DNA of 45,119 nucleotides from Dhillonvirus LM40P1, in the sequence record OZ035746.1; one strand, 5' to 3'. The notes under the pieces were generated by a model. That model ran no database searches. It was not told the DNA's origin and saw only the letters and a list, made by a program, of their open reading frames with translations. The translations under genes were made by a program, and so were the position numbers. Within the stretch, counting starts at the first letter, position 1, and each line of letters starts with the position of its first letter. Positions 20,201 to 24,031 of this stretch are shown piece after piece.

Positions 20201-20696
20201 GCAGAAAATGACGTCTACGTTTAACCACTCTGGTGGTAACGCAACCTACAGCCTGAAAGCTGGAGTGACGTACAACGGGACGTATTATGATGCCGGTATG
20301 CAGCTTTCGGTAGTTGCCGAAGGGAACTCGGTTAAATCGCGCATCGCGTTCAAGGCGGACCAGTTCTACATCATGCACCCGTCGAACGGTACGCTATCCT
20401 CCGCGTTCATCGTTGACGGCGGGCAGGTGTACATCGACACGGCCAGAATCAAGAACGCGTCCATTAACTTTGCGCAGATCACGGACACGCTGCAATCCAA
20501 CAACTGGCAGCCTGGCAGCCAGGGGTGGCGAATCGCGAAGGATGGCGGCGCGGAGTTTAACAACGTGACAATCCGCGGCAACGTGTATGCGCAGACTGGT
20601 AACTTCGGTTTTTCAAGTGGGTCGGTACAAATCGACTGGTCGGGGGTAAACGTGCCGTTGCCTGGCGGAGGGCGGGTTAAAGTGGGGGTGTGGTAA
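17250..20696 (+). CDS. central tail fiber / host specificity protein J-like
   Basis: 1148-aa ORF at the end of the tail-tip module with ATGA overlap to the upstream gene; size and position typical of lambda J-like proteins. Confidence 0.8.
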   Translation: MTIVYSVTGHKGGGGKQHTPQETPDSLHSLAKIRILLALGEGEFEGIPSAAELRKRVYLDGTPIMNEDNSENFPGARVEFRPGTQHQDVIHGFSAVESESSVNVKLEQGAPWVRQITDTSLDAVRIRIGIPALYTNEDNGDLVGGRIDYKIVVYTDNADPREFAFAAVGKTMSLYERDHRIELPSNVNTGWRVEVHRITADSTSAKVVNDIRVQSITEIIDARLRYPLTALLFVEFDAKAFQDIPRVSIKCKGRKVLIPTNYDPIAHTYSGDWDGTFKRAWTDNPAWHWYDICITERFGLGRRIKPQMLNRYALYQIAQRCDQMVSDGNGGQEIRFKNDMYIQSQTDAWTVLKDLAAIFAGMTWWGNQMLNIVSDQPVAAVSHTITNASVIDGRFDYASGSQKTRYSTFAVAYGNPANHYDDAIATGQRVELVRRHKINRLDITAIGCTRESEAQRRGHWALISNQLDQQVSFKVGMEGLFFIPGSVVAIADTNISGGFEIRGGRLLEDPGTRTVLNTDEEITFRPGDKFLVRTANGNVETRTISSVNGNKVTLSSALDADPIPFQPFCVDGDDIQVQKFRITDLEYDDATSTFSVRGIEYNDSKYDAVDNGARLDPGIFTQMPDGVLKGPESVTITPSQISSQGQLITNVDIVFPPVKNAVVYEIQWRRTSLQNMALQWGNDWVNLPRTPSNGAHIPNVFSGNYQARVRAIGMGEISSPWVESAITPIEGRLGGLNAPIITAAVSGLHQILWKWNHNNAATDISYTELEVRKPGTEEWHFLTNVPYPGAEYAQTSLEFGIYQQLRARVADKIGNLSDWSAPFEGQVSDKVDDYMKGLDDEFLTSEDGKHFQEQIDTFPQGIYESMLTDAQQLLNARAEYQGIYAEIKVAYTVAADAHQAVAELETLIGTRLDDAEAAIHTLQTAQSTHEQAFAQYQQTVSAKFGDQEAAIQSVQTATSDVASALATYKTQVAAQFGQQSAAIEQKMTSTFNHSGGNATYSLKAGVTYNGTYYDAGMQLSVVAEGNSVKSRIAFKADQFYIMHPSNGTLSSAFIVDGGQVYIDTARIKNASINFAQITDTLQSNNWQPGSQGWRIAKDGGAEFNNVTIRGNVYAQTGNFGFSSGSVQIDWSGVNVPLPGGGRVKVGVW

Positions 20697-20702
20697 AACG
20701 CA

Positions 20703-20725
20703 AGGGGCCGTTTGGCCCCTTTCTT
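20703..20725. terminator. bidirectional terminator between J and the convergent minus-strand gene
   Basis: AGGGGCC-GTTT-GGCCCCT hairpin with a T-rich flank on the plus strand and a T-run on the minus strand; the stop of the minus-strand gene at 20724 lies in the flank. Confidence 0.6.
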
Positions 20726-21689
20726 AATACATATTAGGAAGGACAATCAGCGGTGTGGGTACGACAACATTGCGGTTAGGCATCTGGAATTGCTGCCGTG
20801 AATAGTTGCCAATGACGCGGTTTTTCGCTGCACCAACGACGCTACCCGCCATGCGGATCCCGTTCATTCGTACGTGGTTATAACCGCTATTGTTTTCAAT
20901 AAGCGCGCCCGTGTATGAAAGCTGAATAAGGCTGTTACCGATATTCTGCCACCCTGCGCTAAGGTCAACCGTCCCGTTAAACACAAACGGCTTATTGACG
21001 GTGGAGAATGTAACCTGGCCTGCGTTGTTGGTCATCGTGATACCGGTTCCGGGGCTTGGCGGTGTGTTATTGAATATAACCAATTCCATGTCAACGGCAG
21101 CACCCACATCATCAATCCCGCCGTAAGCCGCATTGCGGACGATAATACTGCCTCCATCGAAGCCAACCGACACGTTAGGGTCATCCCAACGGGCGAACGG
21201 AACACCTCCGACCGGCAGCGGCATACTTCCGTTCACATGGACGCGCTGCGCGTAGCGACAGGTCATCAGCCGAGCGACGTTTGATATGGCGGTGAAGTCC
21301 GTCGAGTTAGCCACCAGAAGCCCAGCATTACGCGACCCCACCGGCAGCACTTCCATAATCGTTCCCGCCCAGGTTGGAAGCCCGCTATAAGCGCCCAGCG
21401 CGTCAGCACCGTGCAGCGTAATTCCGCCATCACCATTTCGAGATATTGACGTTACAAACATCGGATCGGGTATTACCAGTGTTTGGTCGAACACTTCCAC
21501 CACTTCAACGGGATTAGTTAGCACGACTATAAGCTGCGATCCAGGCGTTAGCGGAGTATTGACTGTTAGCGTCTTGTCAGATTGGCAGCGCTGATTAAAA
21601 TTGGTACAAAAAGACGGAGCACGAAGCCCCGCCGTAATTTCCATTCTTGGACGTCCATCGTTGTATTCGATAAGGATACCTGCACCCAT
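20724..21689 (-). CDS. hypothetical beta-rich protein (321 aa), co-transcribed with the lipoprotein
   Basis: ORF 20724..21698; ATG 21689 sits directly after the lipoprotein stop (TAAATG) with a GGGAG RBS; Gly/Asn/Thr/Val-rich; no signal peptide seen; no domain recognised. Confidence 0.5.
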   Translation of the reverse strand: MGAGILIEYNDGRPRMEITAGLRAPSFCTNFNQRCQSDKTLTVNTPLTPGSQLIVVLTNPVEVVEVFDQTLVIPDPMFVTSISRNGDGGITLHGADALGAYSGLPTWAGTIMEVLPVGSRNAGLLVANSTDFTAISNVARLMTCRYAQRVHVNGSMPLPVGGVPFARWDDPNVSVGFDGGSIIVRNAAYGGIDDVGAAVDMELVIFNNTPPSPGTGITMTNNAGQVTFSTVNKPFVFNGTVDLSAGWQNIGNSLIQLSYTGALIENNSGYNHVRMNGIRMAGSVVGAAKNRVIGNYSRQQFQMPNRNVVVPTPLIVLPNMY

Positions 21690-21691
21690 AA

Positions 21692-21916
21692 TTACCACTC
21701 CCGTGATTTAACTGATACCGTACCAGAGAAGTTACCGTCTGAATCTGCCGCCAAACCGGTGAATCGCATGTCAATGTCTCCGGCAGCGACCTTTTGCCCG
21801 TCAACATAACGCAACATGCAGCTTCCCGCAACGTAGGTAACGCAATCGCCATTATGACGCTCAACAGCACAACCAGACAGCATAGCAACGACTAAAATAC
21901 TTAATAAAGTTTTCAT
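21692..21916 (-). CDS. small lipoprotein (74 aa), candidate superinfection-exclusion protein (Cor/Llp-like)
   Basis: ORF 21692..21961; ATG 21916 with AAGGAGA RBS; signal peptide and lipobox MKTLLSILVVAMLSGC; own promoter; sits between the J and tail fiber genes on the opposite strand. Confidence 0.5.
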   Translation of the reverse strand: MKTLLSILVVAMLSGCAVERHNGDCVTYVAGSCMLRYVDGQKVAAGDIDMRFTGLAADSDGNFSGTVSVKSREW

Positions 21917-21945
21917 GGTATCATCTCCTTTGTTTTGACAACTTA

Positions 21946-21974
21946 AATATAGTGCAACCAATACGTGATTGCAA
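21946..21974 (-). promoter_or_regulatory. sigma70-like promoter TTGCAA-N17-TATATT (recurring family)
   Basis: Minus-strand reading: TTGCAA (21974..21969), 17-nt spacer containing ATTGGTTGCA, TATATT (21951..21946); about 30 nt upstream of the lipoprotein ATG. Confidence 0.5.
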
Positions 21975-21997
21975 CCAATTTATGAGGAGTTTTCGCT

Positions 21998-24031
21998 ATG
22001 GCAGCGGGTACACTTAACGTAACAAACAACAGCAAGGCCGTAACGGGGTCGGGCACGACGTTTACGTCATTGAAAGCGGGCGACTTTTTATCGCTGGTGG
22101 TGGGGCAAGTCCCGTACACCGTCGCGATTGAGTCAATCCAGAGCAACACGGCGCTTACGCTGGCGCTGCCGTTTGACGGCCCAACGTCTACCGGTCTGGC
22201 GTGGGACTCCGTATCCCGCGATACGATGTCGCTGGCGACTATGGGTGTGACCGTACAGGCGCAGAAAGCGCTACGCATGTTGATTGCTGACGAAAACAAC
22301 TGGCGAGCAATATTCGGCGACGCAGAGCAAATCAGCGTGACACTGCCAAACGGCACGGTTATGCAGGGTATGTCGTGGGGCTATTTGTCCAGCCTTCTAA
22401 AAGACGTCGATCCGGTTGAGCTTCAGAATATTGCCAACCAGGCGGTTAACGCTAAAAACCAGGCTGTAACGGCGAAGAACGACGCCGTGTCTGCTAAGAA
22501 CGATGCGCAGACTGCGAAGACTGCCGCAGAAACAGCGCGCACACAGGCCCAGTCGGCTAAGACCGCCGCAGAGTCAGCACGTGACGACGCGCAGACGGCT
22601 AAGACTGCCGCAGAAACAGCACGCACCCATGCACAGACCGCGAAGACCGCCGCAGAAACCGCCCAGGGTGCGGCGGAAGACGCCCGCGATGAGGCGAAGC
22701 AATATGCAGAGCAAGCCGGAGCACCATATAAGCAGGTATTACAACCGCTACCAGACGTGTGGGTTCCGTTTAACGATTCGCTGGATATGCTCGCAGGCTT
22801 CGCGCCAGGATACAAGACGGTTACGGTAGCCGACGACGAGGTTACTATGCCGAGCGACAAGGTGGTGTCGTTCAAGCGCGCATCAACGGCAACATATATT
22901 AACAAGTCCGGCGAGTTTAAAATCGCAGAGATTGACGAGCCGAGATTCGAAAAATACGGCCTGCTCATTGAAGGCCAACGCACTAACTATTTCTCCAACT
23001 CCAACACGCCGGAATCATGGAATACAAATCCGAGTCTGACGCGCAGCGAAACTAAGACTGACAGTCGCGGTTTTACTTACGCAACATTTACGCCAGGAAG
23101 TTATGTAGGACAGGTCGGTACGTACACGATTATTGCGGGAGCGTCGGCAAGTCCCATTGACGCAGTGCAAGACGACCATGTAACCATTTCGTTTAGGGCT
23201 AAGGGTGCTAAGCTGCGAATTGGTGCGCGATTTGACAAGGGAAGCCCACTAACCACGGTAGCGATCATGTACGTGGATATGGACGACCTTTCCGTATACA
23301 CATCGGGGGCTGACGCTGATAATCTGGTGGTGAAAAACGTATCCCGCGATGGGGAATGGGTGCTGGTTGAAGCTATTTATAAGGTGACGGACGACTCCGC
23401 CCAGGTTCGCGGGGTGGTATCGATGGCTAACCAAAGCGGCGCTCTGTTTGACGCAACCAGCACCGTCGATGTCACTACACCGCAAGTGGAGTTAGGAATT
23501 AGTGCGTCGTCGTTTATCCCAACCGCCAGCACGCCAACGACGCGAGCAAGCGATATGGTTAATATCCCAGTAACCAACAATCTACCAAACATTCCGATTA
23601 GTGTGATGACCGAAGTGCGCCGCGGTTGGGATAAAGCGCCTAGTTCGGCACCGAGGATTGCGAACACCATCGGCGTTGCAAATAACAGCGAACAGATTAT
23701 TCTGGCGTTCCGCAATCCGGCGGATCTATCGGTGCAGCCGCTACCATATGCGCAGATGGGTGTGGCACAGGCCTACGTGCCTGCGGGGTTACAACCAGGC
23801 AGGCTTATGGTGGCGGGATTCGTCGGCGGGTCAAATGGGAAGTTCAAAGCGGTTGTAAACGGCACTATGTCGCCGGAGTCTACGTCTAACTGGGCCGGGC
23901 CAGGGGCCGCCACTCAAATCCGAATCGGCGGGTCTTCGGCAGGTGGCGAGCGCCACCTTTTTGGGCACGTCCGTAACTTCCGCATCTGGCATAAAGCACT
24001 GACCGACTTACAAATGGGAGAATTAGTATGA
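21998..24031 (+). CDS. side tail fiber protein
   Basis: 677-aa ORF with GAGGAG RBS; fiber-type N-terminus; tandem Ala/Lys/Thr-rich repeats; C-terminal segment VRNFRIWHKALT. Confidence 0.7.
   Translation: MAAGTLNVTNNSKAVTGSGTTFTSLKAGDFLSLVVGQVPYTVAIESIQSNTALTLALPFDGPTSTGLAWDSVSRDTMSLATMGVTVQAQKALRMLIADENNWRAIFGDAEQISVTLPNGTVMQGMSWGYLSSLLKDVDPVELQNIANQAVNAKNQAVTAKNDAVSAKNDAQTAKTAAETARTQAQSAKTAAESARDDAQTAKTAAETARTHAQTAKTAAETAQGAAEDARDEAKQYAEQAGAPYKQVLQPLPDVWVPFNDSLDMLAGFAPGYKTVTVADDEVTMPSDKVVSFKRASTATYINKSGEFKIAEIDEPRFEKYGLLIEGQRTNYFSNSNTPESWNTNPSLTRSETKTDSRGFTYATFTPGSYVGQVGTYTIIAGASASPIDAVQDDHVTISFRAKGAKLRIGARFDKGSPLTTVAIMYVDMDDLSVYTSGADADNLVVKNVSRDGEWVLVEAIYKVTDDSAQVRGVVSMANQSGALFDATSTVDVTTPQVELGISASSFIPTASTPTTRASDMVNIPVTNNLPNIPISVMTEVRRGWDKAPSSAPRIANTIGVANNSEQIILAFRNPADLSVQPLPYAQMGVAQAYVPAGLQPGRLMVAGFVGGSNGKFKAVVNGTMSPESTSNWAGPGAATQIRIGGSSAGGERHLFGHVRNFRIWHKALTDLQMGELV
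22505..22672 (+). repeat. four tandem 42-bp repeats inside the tail fiber gene
   Basis: Units starting 22505, 22547, 22589, 22631 (GCGCAGACTGCGAAGACTGCCGCAGAAACAGCGCGCACACAG and variants) encoding AQTAKTAAETART-type 14-aa repeats. Confidence 0.55.

Follow-up and report, generated by a model that had tools for sequence, protein, structure and literature searches.

A probable LptD-directed host-recognition cassette of Dhillonvirus LM40P1, pairing a receptor-binding protein with an exclusion lipoprotein

Introduction

In small siphoviruses of the Drexlerviridae and of the genera Dhillonvirus, Nonagvirus and Seuratvirus, Maffei et al. (2021, PMC8594841) described 'bona fide RBP loci' directly downstream of gpJ, where a receptor-binding protein (RBP) gene is often accompanied by the gene for a cognate exclusion lipoprotein. 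The allele type at this locus tracks the terminal receptor, and resistant mutants led to LptD as the receptor of Bas14 and Bas18 (PMC8594841). In a body of 1,050 genetic screens, four unrelated RBP families at the locus were found to track FhuA, BtuB, LptD and YncD, with membership of the LptD-associated family defined by >30% identity and >99% coverage (bioRxiv 10.64898/2026.04.02.716166).

How such a pair engages LptD has been visualized for two phages (Dunbar et al., PNAS 2025, PMC12685063). The cryo-EM structure of RBP-Oeko, the RBP of Oekolampad (Bas18), shows it bound to the LPS translocon LptDE (PDB 9rpt, chain C), into which it inserts deeply in the open state; its Gln299, a named contact, hydrogen-bonds Ser350 in LptD loop EL4. 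Rtp45, the exclusion lipoprotein of phage Rtp, sits at the rim of LptD on the periplasmic side, with a hairpin reaching up the lumen of the barrel that displaces EL4 by up to 20 Å, so that the RBP cannot bind; it carries a Cys30-Cys38 disulfide. The same study designates bas18_0026 as the superinfection-exclusion lipoprotein of Oekolampad (SE-Oeko), which its authors could not express, and the structure of exclusion is that of Rtp45 only (PMC12685063). The exclusion phenotype of Rtp45 was originally reported by Wietzorrek (2006), as cited in PMC12685063.

Two better-known systems bear a more distant likeness. T5 follows the same logic with pb5 (oad), an RBP carried as a monomer on the central fibre tip, and Llp, a small periplasmic lipoprotein that alters the extracellular loops of the receptor, here FhuA; llp adjoins the gene for pb5, and a FhuA-Llp structure has been deposited (PMC9586334). 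Llp acts by long-range allostery through this TonB-dependent transporter; in the case of Rtp45, a loop of LptD is physically moved aside. The Cor proteins of T1, phi80 and N15 are likewise small outer-membrane lipoproteins with genes near tail genes, and exclude at the receptor; Cor, too, acts on FhuA (PMC9586334).

Here we describe the corresponding locus of Dhillonvirus LM40P1, analysed in a window that is the whole 45,119-nt stretch of sequence record OZ035746.1. An earlier reading of the DNA by itself (the original prediction) had proposed an antisense pair of genes in this position, for a receptor-blocking lipoprotein and a 321-aa partner that it did not recognize. The literature in which we found LM40_P1 named reports its plating on defence-system strains and gives no receptor, and the main text of the 2026 preprint does not name it.

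Results

Organization of the cassette

The J-like gene and the lateral tail fibre gene flank two minus-strand open reading frames (Table 1), as the original prediction had it. Both are real genes, since each has strong homology to a known family (PF24052 and PF20051, at E 1e-20 and 4e-123 in round figures). The lipoprotein gene runs from an ATG at 21916-21914 to a TAA at 21694-21692, and the 321-aa gene from an ATG at 21689-21687 to a stop at 20726-20724. The second ATG had been placed directly after the lipoprotein stop; the junction is instead a 2-nt spacer (TAA TT ATG), and the GGGAG Shine-Dalgarno sequence of the 321-aa gene lies within the final lipoprotein codons (R-E-W), 8 nt 5' of the ATG. 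The junction in seven relatives is either a 2-nt gap or a 1-nt overlap, so the tight linkage of the pair is conserved. At the other end of the cassette, the stop of the 321-aa gene converges on that of J, with 27 nt between them. The lateral tail fibre on the far side ends in a concanavalin/laminin-G-like domain (PF13385, E 2.6e-6, residues 605-670).

Table 1. Genes and signals of the LM40P1 cassette and its flanks, in window coordinates
Feature	Coordinates	Strand	Evidence
J-like tail-tip (central fibre) gene, 1148 aa	17250..20696	+	ORF; annotated in Ioannina/Oekolampad as tail protein or J-like tail tip protein
G+C-rich hairpin, two-way intrinsic terminator	20702..20721	both	folding; T-rich tails on each strand
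Receptor-binding protein (RBP) gene, 321 aa, DUF6453/PF20051	20724..21689	-	matches to PF20051, 9rpt_C and bas18_0025
Superinfection-exclusion lipoprotein gene, 74-aa precursor, Rtp45/SE-Oeko family	21692..21916	-	matches to PF24052, bas18_0026 and 9rps_D
GGGAG Shine-Dalgarno, RBP gene	21698..21702	-	direct sequence reading
GGAG Shine-Dalgarno, lipoprotein gene	21925..21928	-	direct sequence reading; kept in Dhillonvirus relatives
Sigma-70-like promoter candidate, TTGCAA-17-TATATT	21946..21974	-	scan, 9/12 matches
Lateral tail fibre gene, 677 aa	21998..24031	+	tail fibre matches to phrog_1419 and phrog_1980

Across the 1.5-kb cassette region, DNA identity is 99.8% to Dhillonvirus LM40P1 and 99.5% to Escherichia phage Ioannina. 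Identity is at least 99% to three phage records and 76-78% to 53 further ones, nearly all of them coliphages of the genus Dhillonvirus, Oekolampad (Bas18) and BF9 included. Synteny in related phages, which the original prediction had named as a check, bears the arrangement out: a rightward J followed by leftward RBP and lipoprotein genes is kept in the dhillonviruses Bas83, Bas14 and Bas18, in the Drexlerviridae Bas02 and AKS96, and in EF3-1. Directly downstream of the gpJ homologue and convergent with it, the RBP gene is found in LM40P1 and in eight other phages (Ioannina, Oekolampad and six more). The Seuratvirus SA80RD has the RBP gene; the 6 kb of its sequence that we inspected contained no lipoprotein gene. 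In the terms of Maffei et al. (2021), the LM40P1 cassette is the 'bona fide RBP locus'.

The closest described counterpart is the pair of Oekolampad/Bas18 (PMC8594841, PMC12685063; PDB 9rpt, 9rpw, 9rqi), which comes from the same genus and has the same gene order, orientation and 2-nt junction. The RBP measures 321 aa in both phages and the lipoprotein 73 aa in Bas18 against 74 aa here; about 18-20% of residues differ between the two pairs. The lateral fibre gene next door also differs, encoding 677 aa in LM40P1 compared to 1821 nt (about 606 aa) in Bas18. Rtp44/Rtp45, Bas01/Bas02 (Drexlerviridae) and Bas14/HK578 (Dhillonvirus) have members of the same two families, DUF6453 and PF24052, in the same place downstream of gpJ, and use LptD as receptor. 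Their alleles nevertheless form a distinct subfamily: the RBPs of Bas14 and Bas02 have 311 aa and are about 33% identical to that of LM40P1, and the Bas14/Bas02 type has the lipoprotein motif SSGPRPDGWC in place of AVERHNGDC, a 1-nt gene overlap and a J tip of another type.

The 321-aa protein belongs to the LptD-binding RBP family

The 321-aa protein begins MGAGILIEYNDGRPR and is rich in Gly (10.9%), Val (10.9%), Asn (9.0%) and Thr (7.5%). No signal peptide or membrane segment was seen in the translation, and the original prediction was right that it lacks the former. It matches Pfam family PF20051 (DUF6453) at E 3.8e-123, and the NCBIfam models returned nothing for it. A search of the PDB yielded one distinct sequence, 9rpt_C, aligned over residues 1-321 at E 8.5e-178. 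Against bas18_0025, the alignment is ungapped over 321/321 residues, with 82% identity and 91% similarity; Gln299 is kept, as are all 58 family-invariant columns. With 82% identity at 100% coverage, the protein exceeds the published definition of the LptD-associated family, which gave tblastn matches in 390 phage records. Given the ungapped identity to a solved chain, it is not in doubt that the predicted fold is that of RBP-Oeko. Of the identities that the original prediction had floated for this protein, an oppositely encoded receptor-binding protein is thus the one that the full-length matches to 9rpt_C and bas18_0025 uphold. We infer that it binds LptDE, as has been demonstrated for the 82%-identical RBP of Bas18 only.

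The 18% of residues that differ from the Bas18 RBP are unevenly spread. The difference is greatest at residues 237-250 and 272-280, where the LM40P1 protein matches the allele of Seuratvirus SA80RD, unlike Bas18 or Bas83. This pattern, together with the modest DNA identity to most relatives (only 76-78% to the 53 records, against at least 99% to three) and the standing of RBP loci as exchange hot spots (PMC8594841), could suggest that the same gene pair has shifted its specificity, with the RBP directed at another outer-membrane protein, or at a variant or conformation of LptD outside the range of Bas18, and the lipoprotein blocking that target. We consider this very improbable. Bas14, Bas02 (both about 33% identical) and Bas01 are far more distant members of the family, and LptD is the receptor of each; no relationship links the four receptor-specific RBP families to one another (bioRxiv 10.64898/2026.04.02.716166); and both Gln299 and the invariant columns are retained. 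A narrower proposal is that the two patches sit in LptD-contacting loops and alter which LptD variants or resistance mutants can be used, to which we assign a small chance. If true, the phages that use LptD would fall into distinct host-range or escape groups, with loop patches exchanged across genera.

The original prediction had also entertained a second exclusion or defence component, which would place the 321-aa protein outside the virion as an exclusion or anti-phage defence factor alongside the lipoprotein. The gene is indeed antisense to the tail operon and forms one unit with an exclusion gene, and its PHROGs family is labelled 'membrane protein / moron'. That label is uncurated, however; the protein has neither signal peptide nor membrane segment; PADLOC returned 0 families for both proteins at E<=1; and the 82%-identical protein of Bas18 is a structurally characterized virion RBP, seen by cryo-EM on the extracellular face of the receptor. 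The retention of the RBP gene in SA80RD, in a 6-kb stretch devoid of the lipoprotein gene, fits an essential virion protein better than an accessory partner. We thus give the defence-factor proposal hardly any credence. The large partner had further been thought to lie outside the paradigm of lipoprotein exclusion, which was mistaken, because llp of T5 adjoins the pb5 gene (PMC9586334); the layout of RBP and lipoprotein was also already known (PMC8594841). Finally, the original prediction would have been given up for a partner that is a standard virion component together with a lipoprotein devoid of an exclusion phenotype. Homology to the RBP in effect makes the partner such a component, which concerns one half of that combination only.

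The 74-aa lipoprotein is a homologue of SE-Oeko and Rtp45

The lipoprotein precursor opens with a signal peptide, MKTLLSILVVAMLSG, followed by the modified cysteine of the lipobox (LSG-C16) and Ala at +2; the lipobox LSGC had been correctly read in the original prediction. The protein matches PF24052 at E 1.1e-20 and is 80% identical to bas18_0026, and in NCBIfam it gave only noise at the level of the signal peptide. In the PDB its match is Rtp45 (9rps_D, E 1.3e-6), with about 21/56 aligned positions matching by manual count of the alignment. Two internal cysteines, Cys25 and Cys33, lie 8 residues apart and align with the disulfide cysteines Cys30-Cys38 of Rtp45. The disulfide cysteines and lipobox of Rtp45 are thus conserved in LM40P1, and the lipobox Cys and both internal Cys are invariant across six aligned family members. 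By analogy with Rtp45, a more distant relative from which the mechanism is known, the lipoprotein would exclude by binding the periplasmic side of LptD.

Its assignment as a receptor-blocking exclusion factor was therefore right in kind, through homology to SE-Oeko and Rtp45, and wrong in the family invoked, which was Cor or Llp. Two candidate memberships were rejected on this basis: the Cor match (phrog_1119, E 0.015) covers residues 1-30, which is the signal peptide only, and, at E<=10, Rtp45 and three matches at chance level were all that the PDB yielded, with no Llp chain among them. That the protein is a FhuA blocker of the type found in T1, phi80 and T5, as its small size, its place beside host-recognition genes and the weak Cor match might hint, is scarcely credible given its strong matches to PF24052 and to its LptD-directed members SE-Oeko and Rtp45. 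Cor is a different family that shares with it the signal peptide match only, and the T5 pb5/Llp pair has no detectable sequence relationship to the LM40P1 pair.

The J tip varies with the type of RBP

The J protein of Bas14 is 84-96% identical to that of LM40P1 along the body. Over the final 47 columns of the alignment the figure drops to 55%, and this end of the protein resembles instead the J of phages that carry the RBP subfamily of Bas14. In the last block of the alignment, the J tip of LM40P1 matches those of Bas18 and Bas83 at 75-82%. J proteins that differ greatly elsewhere (10-45% identity) reach 45-57% in the last ~100-150 columns. As the last ~50 residues of J (about 20550-20693) change with the type of RBP, they are likely to be the RBP docking site. 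The lipoprotein follows suit, in that Oeko-like RBPs pair with an AVER(H/N)NGDC lipoprotein and the RBPs of Bas14, Bas02 and AKS96 with SSGPRPDGWC. With the J tip switching with the RBP subfamily, and RBP and lipoprotein subfamilies paired, the exchanged unit appears to be the J tip, RBP and lipoprotein together, and this exchange supports the docking of the RBP on the J tip, which we infer. The switching of the tip agrees with the receptor-specific C-terminal features of GpJ, LptD included, reported in bioRxiv 10.64898/2026.04.02.716166.

Candidate promoter and shared terminator

The cassette and the lateral tail fibre gene have in common an 81-bp divergent region, which harbours a sigma-70-like promoter candidate at exactly the coordinates given in the original prediction. 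The 9/12 match alone is no better than chance, as a scan of the region found two such sites while 1.7 are expected in shuffled sequence. The candidate gains some support from its -35 element, TTGCAA, which five dhillonviruses with cassette DNA of ~76-78% identity retain in register; their -10 differs. We regard a cassette promoter at this position as plausible but unproven.

A terminator had been claimed at 20703-20725, and a G+C-rich hairpin is indeed found there. Its core, GGGGCC-AAAC-GGCCCC at 20704-20719, extends to 20702-20721 and is followed by TTGCGTTTT. The calculated free energy is -17.4 kcal/mol on the minus strand and -18.3 kcal/mol on the plus strand (z-scores -3.8 and -3.5), and 0/200 shuffled sequences were as stable. 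J and the 321-aa gene converge with 27 nt between their stops, and the hairpin takes up this gap; it is therefore a two-way terminator that serves J as well as the cassette, to which alone it had been ascribed. In SA80RD and AKS96, the annotation likewise places a two-way terminator here. The hairpin was confirmed by folding and was not picked up by a generic terminator scan, presumably because its stem may continue into the T-run.

Discussion

Taken together, we are confident that the cassette is the Dhillonvirus host-recognition module, predicted to consist of an LptD-binding RBP and an LptD-blocking exclusion lipoprotein. The gene structure, the family membership, the synteny and the co-variation of J tip and RBP were demonstrated in LM40P1 itself, and the Bas18 and Rtp complexes provide a framework for how the two proteins may act.

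We postulate that the two proteins act on LptD from opposite sides of the outer membrane. The RBP, made in the cytoplasm without a signal peptide, would attach without a covalent bond to the J-like central fibre, at its C-terminal tip. On meeting a new host it would enter open-state LptDE from the extracellular face and touch loops EL3-5 and EL11 of LptD, and this insertion would render adsorption irreversible. The lipoprotein, by contrast, would be exported and receive its lipid at Cys16, and Ala at +2 would direct it to the outer membrane, into the inner leaflet. From this position it would bind the periplasmic rim of LptD and extend its hairpin up the barrel lumen, displacing EL4. With EL4 displaced, the RBPs of incoming phages, or of progeny meeting cell debris, would be unable to bind, resulting in superinfection exclusion.

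The two genes are transcribed leftward, and a single promoter in the divergent region probably drives both, with a transcript that would end at the hairpin shared with J. The promoter, the timing of expression and the single leftward transcript are predictions from the DNA, and that one promoter serves both an exclusion factor and a virion protein is our assumption.

The module itself is already known, from genetics in 2021 and from structure in 2025, and with the genome public LM40P1 contributes one more allele. As LptD is essential, phages that use it as receptor are of interest to those working on phage steering and on LptD inhibitors, an interest that belongs to the published Bas18 and Rtp work. 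The practical value of the present analysis lies in annotation. GenBank and PHROGs still list the 321-aa gene as 'hypothetical', 'membrane protein' or 'moron', and Pfam as 'DUF6453'; we suggest that it be named LptD-binding RBP, and its neighbour cognate superinfection-exclusion lipoprotein.

Mobility and possible mosaicism of the receptor-binding protein gene

The receptor-binding protein (RBP) of Escherichia phage vB_EcoS_SA80RD, a Seuratvirus, shares 82.6% identity with the 321-aa LptD-binding RBP homologue of the window. In SA80RD the interval between the tail fibre gene and the beginning of the RBP gene is just 124 bases long and AT-rich, no lipoprotein gene adjoins the RBP, and tblastn of the 6-kb locus with the 74-aa exclusion lipoprotein as query returned zero matches. 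The RBP can thus move without its exclusion partner.

The same allele bears on the history of the gene itself. At residues 237–250 (FVFNGTVDLSAGWQNIG) and 272–280 (GSVVGAAKN), the window RBP is identical or nearly so to SA80RD, whereas Bas18 and Bas83, which belong to the same genus as the window phage, differ at both patches (FVYDRTINIG..DQ.IG and GNNVR.AKN). This distribution suggests that recombination across genera has acted patch by patch within the RBP gene.

A conserved N-terminus and its apparent remnant in HCF1

Across subfamilies (window and related loci L003–L008) whose overall identity is only ~33%, residues 1–25 (M..GI.....DGR..M.ITAG.R) are the most conserved stretch of the RBP. 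The N-terminal part is also the sole portion surviving in Citrobacter phage HCF1, a record flagged as an unverified assembly, which retains residues 1–34 alone (76% identical). There the fragment adjoins the end of a longer gene (3717 nt) for the J-like tail-tip protein, and an 83-aa ORF lies immediately upstream; subject to the unverified assembly, this looks like a leftover RBP locus with a J extension in its place. Together with the J tip that co-varies with RBP subfamily, the conservation and the HCF1 remainder suggest that the N-terminus may be the J-docking end.

Features flanking the cassette

Coordinates of the features discussed
Feature	Record	Position	Strand	Detail
Lateral tail fibre	window	21998-24031	+	residues 605-670: C-terminal concanavalin/laminin-G-like lectin domain (PF13385, E 2.6e-6)
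Repeated ATTGGTTGCA	window	21953-21978	-	two copies, 15 nt apart
SA80RD RBP locus	L005	2377-3466		
HCF1 RBP fragment region	L009	2772-3102		Citrobacter phage HCF1

The first ATTGGTTGCA copy overlaps the -35 element of the candidate cassette promoter. Ioannina shares the repeat with the window; it is absent from Bas18, Bas83 and Bas14, and may reflect chance or a regulator site. The lectin domain of the lateral fibre is compatible with glycan (O-antigen) recognition as a first, reversible receptor step.

Wider distribution of the family

Some T1-like or Dhillonvirus-like records with 40–60% identical RBPs are catalogued under hosts including Campylobacter jejuni, Pseudomonas syringae and Vibrio, which may reflect wrong host assignment or coliphage contamination. 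Tblastn of phage records also recovered proteins 24–26% identical to RBP residues ~108–299 (E 1e-7 to 1e-9) in phages of ~75–77 kb (Bas86, KBNP1711, 172-1, MN05 and others), which are unlike the small siphoviruses. The receptor-binding body of the family may be employed beyond small siphoviruses.
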